From sequence record NC_028248.1: a DNA stretch of 64,000 nucleotides; one strand, 5' to 3'. This document shows positions 20,319 through 29,806 of the stretch, piece after piece; the first letter of the stretch is position 1, and each line of letters begins with the position of its first letter. Position numbers and translations under genes: made by a program. The DNA is from Escherichia phage slur16. The notes below the pieces were generated by a model. It worked only from the letters and a program-made list of their open reading frames with translations, was not told the origin of the DNA and made no database searches.

Positions 20319-20637
20319 CGTTTATGTTCGGGCAAGGTCGCTAGTCTTGCCCCGCCATTTTCAGGCAGCTGCATGTCTCCATGCAGACCAGACTATATCT
20401 TATAAGCGACAACAACCGCTTATCCTCCCGTTTCGAATCGCTTGATTCTACGTCTTTCGACTAGTCGTTGAACGTTCATCCTCTCGGATGCTTCGCTGCG
20501 GATTATCTAAATTAACACACTGTTACCATACCTTCGATCTCTCTTCGAAGCCTCTATCATGTTACCATGACAGGTTGGTGGTATTAATAGTAAAGATTTC
20601 CCCGCAATTAGGGAGGTTTTACGAGAGCTACAAATTA
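20319..20637 (-). mobile_element. group I self-splicing intron (ORF-less) in terL
   Basis: Minus-sense conserved elements in order: P AAUUGCGGGGAA (20609-20598), Q AAUCCGCAGC (20504-20495), R GUUCAACGACUAGUC (20473-20459), S AAGAUAUAGUCUGG (20401-20388); no ORF; splits Walker ATPase from nuclease domain. Confidence 0.8.
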
Positions 20638-21063
20638 ACCCTCATCGAAGCAAACCATGGTGTACTCAAGCCCTTGATGGTTAAGCTTATCTTGTACATA
20701 CTCCATGTGGCAGTATTTTACAACAGCTCCCTTTTTGCTTCTATCCCACTTGCCAGTGTTCGGATCAAACCGTGGAAAAATGAACTTATGATCCTTCTCT
20801 CTGAACTTTGGCTTAATGTTTTCAGGCAGATCACTATAAATAGCTACCGCTTTAGGCCATAGTCCACCCTCACCTTCCAACTGCGGGGTTGTTCTTCGGA
20901 ACATAACCACAGAGCTGTGGGGGTCATCAATAATTTTAAGTGGCATCAATTGCAAGAGGAACGACTTGCCAGACCCTGCGGCACCGCCGATTACCAAAAT
21001 ATCTGCATCGTTTTCGAGGATCATCTTCTGCTTTTCAGAACACGGTCCGTAAATCTTAGACAT
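20638..21063 (-). CDS. terL: terminase large subunit, exon 1 (ATPase domain)
   Basis: Walker A GGAAGSGKS and Walker B-like VCFDE; ORF-track stop at 20635 lies in intron sequence. Confidence 0.8.
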
Positions 21064-22166: not shown

Positions 22167-22243
22167 TGGTCTCCACGGAGTGATTCGAACACTCGACCTC
22201 CTGATCCCAAATCAGGCGCTCTACCAAGCTGAGCTACGCGGAG
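22167..22243 (-). tRNA. tRNA-Pro (anticodon UGG)
   Basis: Cloverleaf with C1:G72, anticodon loop UUUGGGA, T-arm GAGUG-UUCGAAU-CACUC, CCA encoded. Confidence 0.85.
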
Positions 22244-22254
22244 TATTTATTATT

Positions 22255-22329
22255 TGGTGGCCCTGGGTGGAATTGAACCACCGTCTGGCGATTATGAGTC
22301 GCTTGCTTGAACCTTCCAGCTACAGGGCC
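22255..22329 (-). tRNA. tRNA-Met (anticodon CAU; elongator, initiator or Ile-lysidine type not resolved)
   Basis: Acceptor GGCCCUG/CAGGGCC, anticodon loop CUCAUAA, T-arm GGUGG-UUCAAUU-CCACC, CCA encoded. Confidence 0.8.
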
Positions 22330-22330
22330 A

Positions 22331-22406
22331 TGGTGCTGATGGCAGGACTTGAACCTGCAACCTATTGATTACAAATCAATTGCACTACCAATTGTGCTAC
22401 ATCAGC
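22331..22406 (-). tRNA. tRNA-Thr (anticodon UGU)
   Basis: Acceptor GCUGAUG/CAUCAGC, anticodon stem AUUGA/UCAAU with loop UUUGUAA, T-arm GCAGG-UUCAAGU-CCUGC, CCA encoded. Confidence 0.85.
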
Positions 22407-22412
22407 AAAAAA

Positions 22413-22511
22413 GGTGCTAGGTGATGGAATCGAACCACCTATGTATTCAACGACTACCTCGTCTATTTTCAGGATTAAAAATCCTCGCCCTTGCCAAAGG
22501 GCTTACCTAGC
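22413..22511 (-). tRNA. aberrant tRNA-like gene (possible pseudo-tRNA; Lys-UUU-like anticodon loop but oversized variable region)
   Basis: Perfect 7 bp acceptor GCUAGGU/ACCUAGC, D-arm GCCC-UUUGGCAA-GGGC and T-arm GGUGG-UUCGAUU-CCAUC, but ~47 nt between D- and T-arms; only CC encoded at 3' end. Confidence 0.3.
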
Positions 22512-22609
22512 TCAGTATGTTGACCATGTTGCTAGTCGGCGATGACGACTGTAACATTTGATAATCCGGTTCTGCTTCCGGCTTTCGCTTAATTACAAGG
22601 TCAACAATA

Positions 22610-22700
22610 TGGCTGAGGGTAATGGAATCGAACCATCATCGAGTCATCCTCAACGGGACGGTTTTCAAGACCGCTTGAGCACCATTGCTCCCTACCCTCA
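22610..22700 (-). tRNA. tRNA-Ser (anticodon UGA), type II with long variable arm
   Basis: Anticodon arm GCGGUCUUGAAAACCGU nearly identical to E. coli tRNA-Ser(UGA); T-arm GAUGG-UUCGAUU-CCAUU; discriminator G; CCA encoded; position 1 is U. Confidence 0.8.
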
Positions 22701-22814
22701 TTTATAAACAATACTGATAATGACACTGATTTTCGAGCAGTTAGTGACTAGTATAAACGACGATAAATATCAATGCCATTATCTGTATGATTTATGCATT
22801 TAAAACTATAAATT

Positions 22815-22901
22815 TGGTGGGGAGTGGTGGAGTCGAACCACCCGAGTCGTAATGACAATAGATTTACAGTCTACACCGCTACCTCTACGGGATAACTCCC
22901 C
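22815..22901 (-). tRNA. tRNA-Tyr (anticodon GUA), type II
   Basis: Acceptor GGGGAGU/ACUCCCC; anticodon region AGACUGUAAAUCU as in E. coli tRNA-Tyr; long variable arm; T-arm GGUGG-UUCGACU-CCACC; CCA encoded. Confidence 0.85.
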
Positions 22902-22905
22902 AATT

Positions 22906-22980
22906 TGGCACCCCGTACTGGACTCGAACCAGTGTCAACGGCTTAGAAGGCCGCTGCTTTATCCACTAAGCTAACAGGGC
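22906..22980 (-). tRNA. tRNA-Arg (anticodon UCU)
   Basis: D-arm GCUU-AGUGGAUA-AAGC, anticodon stem GCGGC/GCCGU with loop CUUCUAA, T-arm ACUGG-UUCGAGU-CCAGU, CCA encoded. Confidence 0.8.
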
Positions 22981-25522: not shown

Positions 25523-25873
25523 CTAACCAGTTGTTGACATTCGAATAACTTCTTCTGGTGGCAAAACTTTGGAAAATGTGCATCTTTTACCTCTCCCTTG
25601 TGTGGATATTTCAACCACTCCTGCACATTCTAAAGTTTTAACGCACGCTGCTGCTTTTGTTTTCTTTATCCCAATATCTGCTGCAATTTTCCTTGTGCTG
25701 GGCGTGAAGCGTGAATTTCCTCCAAGCTTATACCAGTTGTGCAGGTAGCAGTATACGATCTTGTCATATAAGTCAAGAACAACAACCTCACCAGTTGTGT
25801 CATTCAAAACTTTTGACATAGACAGTATTTCAAGGGGGACTTTAAGATATAGCAGCTTATCCCCATCTTTCAT
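25523..25873 (-). CDS. winged-helix / HTH DNA-binding protein
   Basis: 116 aa; segment FTPSTRKIAADIGIKKTKAAACVKTLECAGVVEI resembles a winged-helix recognition unit; ends ~75 bp from the palindrome array. Confidence 0.45.
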   Translation of the reverse strand: MKDGDKLLYLKVPLEILSMSKVLNDTTGEVVVLDLYDKIVYCYLHNWYKLGGNSRFTPSTRKIAADIGIKKTKAAACVKTLECAGVVEISTQGRGKRCTFSKVLPPEEVIRMSTTG

Positions 25874-25920: not shown

Positions 25921-26475
25921 TTACTCCACGCTGTCAATAGCAAGACTCATTGCAATACGGTATGCCTCTTCTAATGGTAAGAGTCTCCCCCACACATCCC
26001 AACCGACATCAAACTGCCTGCCAAACAACTGCTGTGTGGTTCCGTGAGCATGACCGAACAGTTGGACCGATCCGTGAGGCTTTCTGTTCCACTTTGCAAA
26101 CTGGTAATGGCTCATACAGATCAAATTCTTGTTGTGGCGAAGCTCGTAATAATCTACAACCTCATGACCGAACTCTTTCATAATTCTGACAGTCGTCCTT
26201 GTGTCATGGTTACCACGAACAAGAATAATATGTCCGTTCAACATATTTAGAACATCTGGGAGCAATTTGTTAATATTCTTATCATTAGTGCACGCAATAT
26301 CTCCTAAGTGAAACACAGTGTCTGCAGGTGACACAACAGAGTTCCACTTGGTGATGATCCCCGCATTCATACTGTCAAGATTGTGATCATACTGAGATCT
26401 GTGTTTTTGACATGAGTCAAACTCCATGACCCGCTGGTGGAGAAAGTGTGTGTCGCTTGTTACAAAGTATTTCAT
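25921..26475 (-). CDS. calcineurin-like metallophosphoesterase (candidate RNA-repair phosphatase)
   Basis: Motifs DTHF, GDIACTND, GNHD, GHAHG; start set to ATG 26475 (GAGGAA RBS) just after the kinase stop. Confidence 0.65.
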   Translation of the reverse strand: MKYFVTSDTHFLHQRVMEFDSCQKHRSQYDHNLDSMNAGIITKWNSVVSPADTVFHLGDIACTNDKNINKLLPDVLNMLNGHIILVRGNHDTRTTVRIMKEFGHEVVDYYELRHNKNLICMSHYQFAKWNRKPHGSVQLFGHAHGTTQQLFGRQFDVGWDVWGRLLPLEEAYRIAMSLAIDSVE

Positions 26476-26482
26476 ACATTCC

Positions 26483-26950
26483 TCATTTAAGTTTAATGCA
26501 GTTTTTAAGCTGGCGTTCCATACGATCCACAACCCTGTCTGGAACATCATGAATGCTTTTACTACCATGGCGGTTTTCAACCACGATTACGGTATAACTA
26601 TACCTATGACTGATCGCCATGTCAATATATTCTTGCACATATTTTTCTTTTGTAAATGTATTACTTACCACGATACGGTCGTATCCCATACGCATCATAT
26701 CTTCTACGTTATCTTTGCACCATTTTGCTGCAAGTGTTACTTTACTTGCATCCCAGTTGTAATTTCCATCATCGTCGTACCAGAACATGTCGTTCTCAAA
26801 ATGTGGATACAGACCTTCTAAAGATAGCGCACTTGCCAGTGTTGATTTGCCAGACCCTGGTAGACCACGCACGATATATAGCATTTTAGACATAGTAATC
26901 CTCCGTTTTAATTTCAACGATAGTATACCTAACTGTTTTGTTAATTTCAA
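26483..26950 (-). CDS. polynucleotide 5'-kinase, P-loop (T4 Pnk kinase-domain-like)
   Basis: Walker A GLPGSGKST near N-terminus; ~150 aa kinase-only size; adjacent to phosphoesterase and RNA ligase. Confidence 0.6.
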   Translation of the reverse strand: MKLTKQLGILSLKLKRRITMSKMLYIVRGLPGSGKSTLASALSLEGLYPHFENDMFWYDDDGNYNWDASKVTLAAKWCKDNVEDMMRMGYDRIVVSNTFTKEKYVQEYIDMAISHRYSYTVIVVENRHGSKSIHDVPDRVVDRMERQLKNCIKLK

Positions 26951-27011
26951 GTGTTGACACTAGGTTATTTGTGTGGCAGGATAGACTGACAAAATGACAA
27001 ATGAGGAACGT

Positions 27012-27929
27012 ATGATGAAGTATTTTAATGCAGACGACCTAGTTGACAAAGGTCTTGTAACCAGCAGATATCACCCAGACCTTGGGTTAAAGATCTATAA
27101 ATATGCCAGAAAAGTATTCTACAACAACTTATGGCATTTGTCTCCTCGATTACTGGAGTGCCGAGGCATTGTTGTCGGTAATGAAGGAAATGTTGTGGCA
27201 TGGCCCTTTACAAAAGTGTTTAACTTGGGAGAAAACTCCACCAACCTGCCTGACAATAAGCTTGTGACGGCGGTAGAGAAAAAGAACGGATTCCTTGGTG
27301 TGGTGTCATCTCATAAAGGTGAACTATTGTTCTCAACAACCGGGTCTCTTGATTCTCCATATTGTAACCTTGCAAAGGAAACCATCCAGGAGCAATGTGG
27401 TAATTTAGATCTTATCAAGAAGGTTATGGGCAATGAAAATATGACATTCATGTTTGAAATTTGTCACCCCTCAGATCCGCATATTGTTCAGGAAGATCAT
27501 GGCGCATATTTGATAGGTTGCAGATATAATGATTCTGGAATAATGCTACCAGAAGCAGCTTTAGATGGGATTGCCAAATACCTTGGTGCAAAACGTCCTC
27601 ACACTGTGCGTGAAATTCCGTTCAGTTATGCAAAAGAATTAGCTGCAGAAACAAGAGGTGAAGGGTATATGATTCGTAAGCCTTACTACCCTTATGATCT
27701 GCAGCTGAAGATTAAGTCTCCATACTATCTGGCACGGAAGGCCGTAATGAGGGGTAAAGCTTGGAAGATTTGGGATGATGATATCTTTAAACGTGTTGAC
27801 GAAGAGTTTTACGGCATGGTAAACTTCATTCGTAACAACTACACAGAGGATGTATGGAACTGCCTCCTGGAGCAGGAACGCCGTGAGATACTCGATTACT
27901 ATTTCCACAACGAGAACTATATGCAATGA
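27012..27929 (+). CDS. rnlA: RNA ligase 1 (T4 RnlA-like)
   Basis: LLECRGIVV, KVFNLGEN and motif I KKNG match T4 Rnl1 ALECRGIMF, KFFNLNEN, KEDG; start at ATG 27012 with GAGGA RBS (ORF-track ATG 26994 also possible). Confidence 0.75.
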   Translation: MMKYFNADDLVDKGLVTSRYHPDLGLKIYKYARKVFYNNLWHLSPRLLECRGIVVGNEGNVVAWPFTKVFNLGENSTNLPDNKLVTAVEKKNGFLGVVSSHKGELLFSTTGSLDSPYCNLAKETIQEQCGNLDLIKKVMGNENMTFMFEICHPSDPHIVQEDHGAYLIGCRYNDSGIMLPEAALDGIAKYLGAKRPHTVREIPFSYAKELAAETRGEGYMIRKPYYPYDLQLKIKSPYYLARKAVMRGKAWKIWDDDIFKRVDEEFYGMVNFIRNNYTEDVWNCLLEQERREILDYYFHNENYMQ

Positions 27930-28276
27930 AGAAGTTGATTGTGTGGCTAGATGACTTGAGAGATCCGTCAAAGTACGGGCTCCAAGACGCTGTTTGGCTA
28001 AAGAATTCCTCCGAGTTTATAGATTTTATTAACGATAATAGAAAGCTCTACAGACGCGTTTCTGAGTGGCATATGGACAACGACCTTGGAGAGGTATTCG
28101 AAGGGTACGATTGCCTATCTATGTTGGAGGAAAAATTTGTATTTGGTAAGCCTCCTGTAGTTGACAACGTGAAGATTTTCGTGCATACTTCTAACCCATC
28201 AGCGGCTCGTAAATTCATGCTTGCAGCTGACTCGTTTAAAAAGTTTGGAATAGAGATTAAACAAAACATCTACTGA
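27926..28276 (+). CDS. hypothetical protein
   Basis: 116 aa ORF, ATGA-coupled to upstream gene, immediately upstream of Sir2 gene. Confidence 0.45.
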   Translation: MKKLIVWLDDLRDPSKYGLQDAVWLKNSSEFIDFINDNRKLYRRVSEWHMDNDLGEVFEGYDCLSMLEEKFVFGKPPVVDNVKIFVHTSNPSAARKFMLAADSFKKFGIEIKQNIY

Positions 28277-28284
28277 GGACACTT

Positions 28285-29046
28285 ATGCGACGACTGATTA
28301 TTATCTCCGGTGCTGGTTTGAGCGCTGAATCTGGTATTCCCACTTTCCGATCTGGTAGCACTGCAATGTGGGAGAATTTCAGCATCGATGAGGTGTGCAA
28401 CATCCACACCTTTGCCAAGAACTACTATAAGGTGCATGACTTTTACAATGCACGTCGTGTAGCTTTAGGCAGTGTTGAGCCTAACCTTGCACATCTTCGG
28501 ATCGCTGAGTGGTATTCCCGCTGGTCTGGTCGTGTGATCAACCTTACCACCAATGTAGATGATTTGCTGGAGCGTGCTGGTGTAAAACATGAAGATATTT
28601 TACATGTCCACGGGTATTTGCCAGAAATAGTCTATGAGGACGATGAAGGAAGTGACGTCATTAAGGACATTGGATACTCTGAGGTAGACGCAGGAAAGTA
28701 TACCTGGGTTAAGCCTAATGTGGTGTTCTTCGGAGAAGTAGCTCCGAAGTATACAGACATGTATGACCTGTTGACTTCTCTTACGAGCAATGATATGGTT
28801 ATCCTTGTAGGGTGCTCCAACACAGTTATCAATTTTAACTGGGAGCTATTCCCTGCCTGCAATAAGGGAACCAAACTACTGATCGTTAATAAATACGACT
28901 CACAGCATCTAGAGGAGAATGGCATTTCACGTAGTGATATTTACCAGTATGAGGATCGTGGCATCCCAGTTTGGTTTAACGGTGCGGTTGATGCCTTCTC
29001 TGATAAAACATTCATTGAGACTGTAGAAAACTTTATGGAACTTTAA
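28285..29046 (+). CDS. Sir2-family (sirtuin-like) NAD-dependent enzyme lacking zinc ribbon
   Basis: GAGLSAESGIPTFRS (Sir2 Rossmann/NAD motif), TTNVDDLLERAG, catalytic HG in LHVHGY; no CxxC pairs. Confidence 0.75.
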   Translation: MRRLIIISGAGLSAESGIPTFRSGSTAMWENFSIDEVCNIHTFAKNYYKVHDFYNARRVALGSVEPNLAHLRIAEWYSRWSGRVINLTTNVDDLLERAGVKHEDILHVHGYLPEIVYEDDEGSDVIKDIGYSEVDAGKYTWVKPNVVFFGEVAPKYTDMYDLLTSLTSNDMVILVGCSNTVINFNWELFPACNKGTKLLIVNKYDSQHLEENGISRSDIYQYEDRGIPVWFNGAVDAFSDKTFIETVENFMEL

Positions 29047-29059
29047 AAGGAGACCTTTA

Positions 29060-29773
29060 ATGCTGAATACTAAACTGATCGACAACCTGGAAAAACTGTC
29101 TCAGCCTGAAAACTACCTTTGGTCTGCCAACTGGGTGGAAAACTGGAACCGTGTGGCAGCTAAAGTGAAAAAATCATACACACCATTCGAATTACAGCTT
29201 AGCTTCATTGAGGAAGAGTTCAATGAGGTTTTGGAAGAGCTGGAGAAAGGTGATGGTGGAGATCACCTGCTAAAAGAGGCCTGCGATCTTCACGTTGTCA
29301 CAAGTTATGCCGCTTATCTTGTTAATGATAATCACGAAAAGTGGTCAAACCTGTTTGATAATCCACGAGGTCTTAAGTTCAAGATCGGTGAGTTCTATGA
29401 TACACTGATCGCTGCGAAAAACACATCCAAGCAAAGAGCGTCAGCTTACCGTTTAGCTGAGTTGTCAACAGCTTTGCTGTTCCAGCTTCGCGGCGATGTG
29501 TGCGGGATGATGCGTAAGGTTCTCAAATCGAATGACAGCAAGTTTGCACGGGTCAACCATCTACGGTATTCACACGGTGCCAGTGCAGATATGCCTGCTG
29601 AACAACTCATAGAGTTGGAGATTAAAGATCTTGAGCGACGCTTTGATGGTCGATATGAAGGTTTTGTTGCTAAGGAAGAATTCTACAACGGTAATAAAGT
29701 TATCATATTCCTTGACAGTAAAGGTAAGATCATGAAGCCTTCGAGCTTCAAGGATGTAGCAGAGTATATTTAA
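29060..29773 (+). CDS. hypothetical protein (possible MazG-like NTP pyrophosphohydrolase fold)
   Basis: 237 aa; EEEFNEVLEELEKGDGGDHLLKEACDLH resembles MazG-type E-x-x-E ... E-x-x-D; weak. Confidence 0.3.
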   Translation: MLNTKLIDNLEKLSQPENYLWSANWVENWNRVAAKVKKSYTPFELQLSFIEEEFNEVLEELEKGDGGDHLLKEACDLHVVTSYAAYLVNDNHEKWSNLFDNPRGLKFKIGEFYDTLIAAKNTSKQRASAYRLAELSTALLFQLRGDVCGMMRKVLKSNDSKFARVNHLRYSHGASADMPAEQLIELEIKDLERRFDGRYEGFVAKEEFYNGNKVIIFLDSKGKIMKPSSFKDVAEYI

Positions 29774-29806
29774 CAACATGGCCGGGATTACCCGGCTTTA
29801 CTTGTT

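Follow-up and report, generated by a model that had tools for sequence, protein, structure and literature searches.

Bacteriophage T4 repairs tRNA with Pnkp and Rnl1 and thereby counters the PrrC anticodon nuclease. In this work we analyzed a gene set of Escherichia phage slur16 (sequence record NC_028248.1) that appears to follow the same logic. The window, that is the whole stretch of DNA analyzed, is 64,000 nt long, and the genes in question, encoding a P-loop kinase, a calcineurin-like metallophosphoesterase (MPE) and an RNA ligase, lie at positions 25921–27929. As in T4 Pnkp (PseT) and Rnl1 (RnlA), a 5′-kinase, a 3′-end phosphoesterase and an ATP-dependent ligase are combined, and catalytic residues are kept. 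The T4 genes pseT and rnlA are also linked, being located ∼1.4 kb apart on one strand. The T4 kinase is fused to a HAD-type phosphatase, whereas the phage kinase described here stands alone and is accompanied by an unrelated binuclear MPE.

A Pnk-type kinase, a calcineurin-type MPE and an adenylyltransferase/ligase module are also found together in C. thermocellum Pnkp/Hen1, where healing by the MPE has been established experimentally; the metallophosphoesterases CthPnkp and lambda phosphatase have 2′,3′-cyclic phosphodiesterase and phosphomonoesterase activities that are used in RNA end healing (PMC2190708). The locus further resembles fungal and plant Trl1, with which it shares the PF09511 ligase domain, an equally good structural match of the ligase, a Pnk-clade kinase and, in related phages, a kinase-ligase fusion. 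The order of the fused parts differs, being kinase-ligase in the phages and ligase-kinase-cyclic phosphodiesterase (CPDase) in Trl1, and the phage has neither a 2H-type CPDase nor KptA/Tpt1.

The same locus has been described before. Iyer, Burroughs, Anantharaman and Aravind (2022; Viruses 14:1977; PMC9503650, section 3.7.3) used Escherichia phage V5 as a prototype of this neighborhood and, together with Proteus phage Mydo, of their “type 2”, a sirtuin-centered RNA-repair neighborhood that utilizes nicotinamide adenine dinucleotide (NAD). All six of its components, namely sirtuin, T4-like ligase, the cyclic-phosphate-processing receiver-like (cREC) protein, nucleotide kinase, MazG and calcineurin-like phosphoesterase, are found within 25921–29773 of the window. 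Their description is a computational prediction only, in which the phosphoesterase is “occasional”; our survey was centered on the ligase and found the reverse, with the triad of kinase, MPE and ligase as the core in 46 of 64 non-redundant loci. Calcineurin-like phosphatases and cREC were also placed in phage RNA repair by the same authors in a jumbo-phage paper from 2021. The separate phosphatase, which the earlier note on this DNA regarded as a distinct architecture, is therefore not new, as the neighborhood was published in 2022 (PMC9503650) and MPE-based RNA 3′-end healing is established in bacterial Pnkp (PMC2190708). Our literature search returned no paper joining rV5, RNA ligase and polynucleotide kinase.

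Thus, the gene set is real and ordinary, and as an RNA heal-and-seal system it has been known as a prediction since 2022. The concept is not new and the view of how RNA repair works is unchanged by our findings. What is added here is that the triad rather than the sirtuin forms the conserved unit, that one clade has a kinase-ligase fusion, that the MPE can be assigned to the aq_1665 subfamily, and that the ligase has no detectable T4 tRNA-specificity domain. The three genes of the triad are as follows.

25921–26475, minus strand: metallophosphoesterase (MPE), 184 aa, stand-alone, calcineurin-type, aq_1665 subfamily; predicted RNA 3′-end healing enzyme
26483–26893, minus strand: P-loop kinase, 136 aa, stand-alone, polynucleotide 5′-kinase (Pnk) clade
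27012–27929, plus strand: ATP-dependent RNA ligase, 305 aa, Rnl1-type nucleotidyltransferase domain and short 4-helix C-terminal region

The motifs from which the three genes had first been recognized are all present in the translations: GLPGSGKST in the kinase, GDIACTND, GNHD and GHAHG (and also SDTHF) in the MPE, and ECRG, FNLGEN and KKNG in the ligase. The kinase-only, Pnk-like identity of the first and the calcineurin-like identity of the second both hold. The kinase matched Pfam AAA_33 (2e-9), phrog_2071 (1e-56) and phrog_505, “polynucleotide kinase” (2e-9). When the kinase and the ligase were searched against PDB as single sequences nothing useful was obtained, and T4 Pnkp and T4 Rnl1 were reached by family profiles only. 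The kinase profile, built from 36 kinases neighboring related ligases, gave full-length matches, the best of them to the T4 Pnkp kinase (1ly1, 2e-13), followed by the CthPnkp kinase (4gp7, 3e-11), Capnocytophaga Pnkp1 (4xrp, 4e-11), and then PSTK (1e-10) and mammalian PNKP. Adenylate kinase 9 was matched at 6e-13 through repeated stretches comprising the P-loop only; otherwise gluconate, adenylate and shikimate kinases scored 1e-6 or weaker. Among characterized enzymes, the kinase is by this comparison closest to polynucleotide kinases and not to kinases of nucleotides or small molecules.

Alignment to full-length T4 Pnkp with hhalign (98.4% probability) was restricted to T4 residues 1–151 of 301, which means that the kinase has no HAD/DxD phosphatase domain. 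This is in agreement with the earlier note, which had pointed out that the phosphatase is separate, unlike in T4 Pnkp: the 136-aa kinase matches T4 1–151 only, and the MPE is a gene of its own. The P-loop reads G10-L-P-G-S-G-K16-S-T, and G15, K16 and D35 are invariant in the 36 kinases; D35 aligns with the T4 general base D35. T4 R122 and the lid residue R126 align with the R and K of the kinase motif ENRHGSKS, residues that vary across the family.

The ligase matched Pfam RNA_lig_T4_1 (PF09511, 6e-15) and phrog_562 (8e-67). It passed the Pfam gathering score (56.1 against 28.3 bits) and failed the NCBIfam equivalog TIGR02308 (39.3 bits against a cut-off of 242), of which positions 32–251 of 373 were covered. 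It is thus a superfamily member and no T4 RnlA equivalog, and as judged from these profiles we class it with the Rnl1 superfamily of RNA ligases, in a distinct short subfamily, and not as a T4 RnlA orthologue. Searched against PDB, a family profile of 36 homologues (41–50% identical to the query) gave T4 Rnl1 as its sole match (E = 2e-14), and hhalign against full-length T4 Rnl1 placed ligase residues 41–235 onto T4 45–249 with 97.8% probability, the N-terminal 44 residues of T4 Rnl1 being unmatched in the ligase. Motifs I (K90-K-N-G93), III (E149), IV (E217-G218) and V (K233/K235) align with T4 K99/G102, E159, E227/G228 and K240/K242, respectively, and R51 (ECRG), K68 and F70 (FTKVFN) align with T4 R54, K75 and F77. 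Wang, Ho and Shuman are said to have found in 2003 that the latter three residues, which lie upstream of motif I and are specific to Rnl1/Trl1, are essential in T4 Rnl1. All 36 family members share R51, K68, F70, K90-x-N92-G93, E149, E217-G218, K233 and K235. As the catalytic residues are invariant in the family, the machinery for adenylylation and sealing looks intact.

The AlphaFold2 (AF2) model of the ligase had a predicted local distance difference test score (pLDDT) of 92.4, and Foldseek matched it about equally well, at ∼1e-12, to archaeal Rnl3, T4 Rnl1 and fungal Trl1 ligase domains. Related ligases were found in 776 isolate phage records (197 Escherichia, 177 Pseudomonas, 127 Streptomyces and 83 Vibrio among them); the carriers include rV5-like coliphages, Phapecoctavirus, Pakpunavirus, many Vibrio phages and Streptomyces phages.

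For the MPE, matches to Metallophos_2 (1.7e-6) and phrog_547 (5e-51) were obtained. Its five metal-binding motifs (DxH, GD, GNH[D/E], H and GHxH) are invariant in 38 homologues, and the structure check gave a confident metallophosphoesterase beta-sandwich fold. This confirms a binuclear phosphoesterase; the fold says nothing about its substrate. All 87 MPE homologues are stand-alone proteins of 170–240 aa, none of them being fused to a kinase or ligase. The C-terminus of the Vequintavirus MPE (25921–25935) reads ...LAIDSVE and is without the C-terminal D-H-H motif of most family homologues.

To assess the conservation of the gene set we drew on public assemblies and IMG/VR, where 84 loci with a related ligase were collected (64 of them non-redundant), and annotated these loci with hidden Markov models built from curated alignments of the kinase, MPE and ligase families. 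In 46 of the 64 non-redundant loci both the kinase and the MPE were located on the same strand within 2 kb of the ligase, and both were present in 35 of the 45 loci having at least 2.5 kb on either side of the ligase. The genes typically follow each other at 0–500 bp. The flanks held 108 kinase or MPE genes, and 101 of these were within 2 kb of the ligase, a distance that makes up only 29% of the flank DNA (binomial P ∼1e-45, ignoring shared ancestry). Six gene orders were seen in the same-strand loci: MPE>LIG>KIN (31 loci), KIN>LIG>MPE (7), KIN>MPE>LIG (3), LIG>MPE>KIN (3), LIG>KIN>MPE (1) and MPE>KIN>LIG (1). The divergent arrangement of the window is a seventh. One clade, represented by three non-redundant loci, has fusion proteins of 421–432 aa in which the kinase precedes the ligase (Pfam AAA_33 at 16–115, RNA_lig_T4_1 at 184–367). 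That the linkage has been kept through rearrangement and fusion argues strongly that kinase, MPE and ligase work together.

An orthologous gene set has been probed by transposon insertion. In the HIDEN-SEQ preprint on Vequintavirus Bas54, bas54_0206 to bas54_0211 have the same gene lengths and order as the six genes of the window, and the mean insertion counts in E. coli K-12 are 192 for the ligase (over 60 TA sites), 171 for the kinase, 140 for the MPE, 88 for cREC, 406 for the sirtuin and 310 for the MazG-like gene. The abundant insertions in all six genes indicate that the set is dispensable in the laboratory, as expected of an accessory function; such tolerance would be predicted for a gene set that is accessory or acts in counter-defence. 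The Bas54 ligase, fully dispensable in K-12, differs in this respect from T4 rnlA, the N-terminal domain of which was intolerant of insertions in the same study. The counts also bear on the annotation “RNA ligase 1 and tail attachment protein” that many records carry, transferred from T4. Taken literally, it would make the ligase a virion assembly factor like T4 gp63 in tail-fibre attachment, with the kinase and MPE as unrelated neighbors. We rejected a role in tail-fibre attachment because it is largely refuted by the dispensability of the gene in Bas54. Moreover, the gene is located in a region of nucleic-acid metabolism away from the tail genes, and linkage and fusion to the kinase oppose the notion of unrelated neighbors, so that we regard this explanation as extremely improbable.

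Taken together, we consider it fairly probable that these separate small enzymes form a phage system for RNA end healing and sealing, by which RNA cut by host defence nucleases is probably mended through the joint action of kinase, phosphoesterase and ligase. In the presumed order of events, a host ribonuclease (e.g., an anticodon nuclease or a toxin RNase) would cut RNA and leave a 2′,3′-cyclic phosphate and a 5′-OH. The Pnk-type kinase, with its P-loop and with Asp35 as general base, would transfer a phosphate from ATP to the 5′-OH, and the binuclear MPE would open and/or remove the 2′,3′-cyclic phosphate or 3′-phosphate to give a 3′-OH. The Rnl1-type ligase would then take up AMP on Lys90 (motif I, KKNG), pass it on to the 5′-phosphate and seal the break. 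That the MPE acts on 2′,3′-cyclic phosphate and/or 3′-phosphate ends of RNA is predicted only because its gene stays linked to those of the ligase and the kinase. The earlier note had proposed that the three proteins heal and seal tRNA cut by host anticodon nucleases. That they act as a set is borne out by the profile homology to T4 Pnkp and Rnl1 and by a synteny that is conserved, rearranged and partly fused; tRNA would be the presumed substrate and counter-defence the presumed role. If this holds true, a modular kit for the repair of host-cut RNA is spread over many phage groups, built from parts unlike those of the T4 textbook case, and the aq_1665 subfamily of metallophosphoesterases would gain a function. 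It would also bear on phage host range versus tRNA- and RNA-cleaving immunity and on the choice of therapeutic phages.

Several observations weigh against a system for RNA repair, and in particular for tRNA repair. The term “Rnl1-like”, used for the ligase in the earlier note, is true for the nucleotidyltransferase domain only. T4 K119 (motif Ia, S118-K119) corresponds to T110, an invariant Thr in the motif S-T-T-G-S of the ligase family, and no match to the C-terminal domain of T4 Rnl1 (residues 250–374) was detectable, as the hhalign alignment stops at T4 249. The all-helical C-terminal domain of T4 Rnl1 (approximately residues 255–374) confers tRNA specificity; the ligase model has only ∼65 residues forming four helices after motif V, in which an analogous but unrecognized domain may exist. 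In the kinase, the Arg that binds the substrate phosphate (T4 R38) has no counterpart and aligns with W38, which is aromatic in the consensus. The MPE falls into the uncharacterized aq_1665 subfamily, and we rejected its placement in the RNA-healing lambda-Pase/CthPnkp clade with its GDxxDRG motif; its nearer structural neighbors are LpxH, MJ0936, YfcE and the P. putida DNA nuclease MPE, with lambda-Pase/CthPnkp more distant. As it lies outside the RNA-healing clade, its substrate is a guess from context. The name-giving member of the subfamily, Aquifex aeolicus aq_1665 (PDB 1XM7), is a structural-genomics MPE without an assigned function and hence gives no information on the substrate of the phage enzyme. 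The comparisons between K-12 and the test hosts that were retrieved from the Bas54 preprint show no significant depletion of mutants in these genes; the test hosts named there are the uropathogenic isolates CFE303 and CFE311. Finally, an ATP-dependent DNA ligase is encoded within a few kb in 31 of the 84 loci.

The last observation could suggest that the kinase and MPE are general processing enzymes for nucleic-acid ends, which would serve the nearby DNA ligase equally well at DNA nicks with 5′-OH and 3′-phosphate ends that arise through host nucleases or in replication and recombination, RNA repair not being their main role. The fusion seen in the phages is between kinase and RNA ligase, however, and the triad genes are found at the close spacing given above, whereas the DNA ligase is 1–4 kb off and absent from most loci. 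The other recurrent neighbors carry RNA-repair or NAD-related domains. We therefore consider a role in DNA end processing to be unlikely.

In a further explanation the MPE, possibly with the kinase, would act on small molecules such as cyclic-nucleotide immune signals, ADP-ribose derivatives or nucleotide pools, as part of an anti-defence island with no coupled repair. The similar-size MPEs MJ0936, YfcE and LpxH do act on small-molecule phosphodiesters, and the operon in the window has the NAD- and nucleotide-related enzymes Sir2 and MazG-like. Triads of Pakpunavirus and other phages are located beside phosphoribosyl pyrophosphate (PRPP)-synthetase-like and NAMPT-family genes, resembling the NARP1 pathway of NAD+ reconstitution (10.1101/2024.02.11.579819). 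However, MPE and ligase stay together in seven gene orders, and many of these loci have no NAD-related neighbor; the fusion of kinase and ligase in one clade also speaks against this explanation. The phage phosphatase that supports NARP1 is a Macro-domain enzyme and not an MPE. We likewise rejected the idea that the phage phosphatases countering aRES NAD+ depletion are MPEs, as these are Macro-domain (Poa1p-like) enzymes. A role confined to small molecules thus seems very unlikely to us, and a healing and sealing system for RNA remains our preferred interpretation.

The three-gene set of the earlier note was too narrow, as the ligase opens a predicted four-gene operon, ligase-cREC-Sir2-MazG-like, that is closed by a terminator-like hairpin. 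The cREC start overlaps the ligase stop codon (ATGA), the Sir2 gene follows 8 nt on and the MazG-like gene 13 nt further. The additional genes and signals are the following.

27926–28276, plus strand: cREC (cyclic-phosphate-processing receiver-like) protein, 116 aa; PF20274 cREC_REC 4.5e-15, phrog_1479 5e-35
28285–29046, plus strand: Sir2-family protein, 253 aa; Pfam SIR2 3e-27, phrog_2162 9e-110
29060–29773, plus strand: candidate MazG-like nucleotide pyrophosphohydrolase, 237 aa; phrog_671 “nucleotide pyrophosphohydrolase” 5e-22
29780–29797, either strand: GC-rich hairpin, terminator-like on both strands; 7-bp stem with 6 GC pairs, T-rich tail; pattern only
26922–26950, minus strand: candidate sigma-70-like promoter for the kinase-MPE unit, TTGAAA-17-TATACT, 10/12 consensus matches; pattern only

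The NAD-binding motifs and the catalytic His are present in the sirtuin, in GAGLSAESGIPTFR (GAGxSxxSGIPxFR), TTNVDD and VHG. The protein has no CxxC pairs and thus lacks the canonical zinc ribbon, and against the CobB-type models of NCBIfam it scored 123 against 243 bits, far under the cut-off. The MazG-like protein had no Pfam hit, and a homologue (locus L003) gave a faint PRA-PH match; the published V5-type neighborhood lists this gene as MazG (PMC9503650).

The atypical sirtuin is one of the points in favor of a main route of repair resembling that of yeast and plants, as hypothesized by Iyer et al. (2022). In this NAD-dependent route, which overlaps with our preferred interpretation, cREC would open the cyclic phosphate to a 2′-phosphate and 3′-OH, the kinase would phosphorylate the 5′ end, and the ligase would seal the break and leave a 2′-phosphate at the junction, which the sirtuin would remove in a Tpt1/KptA-like manner. 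The MPE and the MazG-like enzyme would merely clear by-products, e.g., ADP-ribose cyclic phosphate. In accordance with this, ligase, cREC, Sir2 and MazG-like genes form a tightly packed, terminator-bounded unit, the ligase model fits Trl1 ligase domains as well as T4 Rnl1, and the six genes occur together in the nearest relatives (L007, L010–L012, L014, L015 and L048), the ligases of which are 43–48% identical. In the hypothesis, cREC and sirtuin could mirror CPDase and Tpt1 (PMC9503650).

On the other hand, homologues of cREC, Sir2 and MazG-like were found in 9–12 of the 84 ligase loci, all of them closest relatives, although the cREC profile may miss divergent copies, whereas about three quarters of the loci have the kinase and MPE along with the ligase. 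This difference implies that the core works without the sirtuin in most phages and that the constant 3′-end partner is the MPE and not cREC. Furthermore, RNA 2′-phosphotransferase activity is unproven for any sirtuin (PMC9503650). A main route through the sirtuin is therefore possible but doubtful. As most phages with the triad have no cREC, sirtuin or MazG, we regard this extension as accessory; the cREC protein, the Zn-less sirtuin and the MazG-like enzyme are probably an NAD-linked accessory branch for 2′-phosphate or cyclic-phosphate products, along the lines of Iyer et al. A combined model can be conceived, in which cREC opens the 2′,3′-cyclic phosphate, the sirtuin removes the 2′-phosphate with NAD+ as a phage CPDase/Tpt1, and the aq_1665-type MPE is a self-sufficient RNA 3′-end healer in hundreds of phages; we hold it to be rather improbable. 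Were it true, the novelty of the sirtuin/cREC branch would be its biochemistry, the prediction having already been put forward by Iyer et al. (2022) as a hypothesis.

The gene borders were defined as follows. For the MPE, the ATG at 26475 (MKYFVTSDTHF) is the most likely start, in preference to the upstream TTG at 26580, and the start of the kinase is the ATG at 26893 (MSKMLYIV...), which is preceded by a GGAGG Shine-Dalgarno sequence. The ligase starts at 27012 or 27015, the positions given in GenBank annotations, the ATG at 26994 being less likely. The gap between kinase and MPE is 7 nt, and the kinase-MPE pair is separated from the ligase by a divergent spacer of 118 nt (26894–27011) that contains the promoter candidate. 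The 3.6-kb stretch around the three genes is 100% identical to Escherichia phage slur12 (LN881735) and 90–99.9% identical to 116 other records, nearly all of rV5-like Vequintavirus. In annotations from the BASEL collection these genes are already named “RNA ligase”, “polynucleotide kinase” and “putative phosphoesterase”.

The earlier note had placed the gene set next to a phage tRNA cluster. The cluster is near but not adjacent, being located 2.9 kb from the MPE gene with ∼8 small open reading frames in between.

22167–22980, minus strand: phage tRNA cluster, seven genes, detected with ARAGORN and Rfam; context, outside both operons

One of these tRNAs is odd (22413–22511, minus strand; 97–99 nt). 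ARAGORN called a 4-base anticodon, “atcc”, and the Rfam score was only 35 bits. Direct reading shows a GAGGA/TCCT stem whose loop, TTTTTAA, resembles the anticodon loop of tRNA-Lys(UUU); a variable region of ∼30 nt comes next. The orthologue is annotated as tRNA-Lys in the Bas52 record. As tRNA-Lys(UUU) is the classic PrrC target, the atypical phage copy could matter for evasion of anticodon nucleases.

The surveyed loci showed a number of further neighbors. The clade with the kinase-ligase fusion consists of uncultivated phages (L033, L036–L038, L040–L042, L044 and L046; e.g., L042:7527–8825). No aq_1665-type MPE was detected near the fusion gene; just upstream of it a conserved protein of 229–236 aa with no Pfam hit is encoded, which might be a replacement 3′-end healing enzyme. 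An HD_4-domain phosphohydrolase was seen beside the triad in 24 loci (e.g., L085:654–1157, Pfam 2e-16) and a DSP/PTP “Swiss army knife” phosphatase in 15 loci (e.g., L074:3132–3626, Pfam 7e-7). Their recurrence implies that some phages hold two or three candidate end-healing enzymes per ligase. A second RNA ligase of the Rnl2/PF09414 type was found beside or near the Rnl1-type ligase in L061 (193–825) and L033 (10509–11588), the latter having an N-terminal OB-fold domain. The recurrence of these domains and of cREC beside the triad is in keeping with a role in RNA repair.

PRPP-synthetase-like and NAMPT/NAPRTase-family genes that resemble the NARP1 pair (Adps, Namat) are located directly beside the triad in Pseudomonas phage PaP1 (L087; HQ832595, gp018–gp028) and are also found in L005, L033 and 12–16 other loci. 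This suggests a shared anti-defence or NAD-related island, the NAD link of rV5-like phages being the sirtuin instead. In the 3.5-kb contig JAHXDU010000436.1 (L004), the kinase-ligase pair is present as a near-perfect inverted duplication with identical products of 310 aa and 134 aa in each arm, which is probably an assembly artefact (fold-back chimera).

Directly downstream of the MPE gene, 25523–25873 on the minus strand encodes a helix-turn-helix (HTH) protein (phrog_12838 “replication initiation protein”, 3e-80; Pfam DUF6945/HTH_36). In Bas54 the orthologous gene, bas54_0212, had a low transposon tolerance, with a mean of 14 against 140–400 for its neighbors, and unlike the repair genes it may be important for the phage. 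Two records labeled “Campylobacter phage” (C. jejuni), MG065655 and MG065682, and 16–21 others are 97–98% identical to the rV5-like region of E. coli phages; these host labels look doubtful, or else the phages look like co-isolated contaminants. Finally, a group I intron was detected at 20369–20647 on the minus strand (Rfam RF00028, 84 bits, full-length model). As it is located where the slur12 record has two coding sequences annotated as “Terminase-like family protein”, the gene for the terminase large subunit appears to be split by a self-splicing intron.

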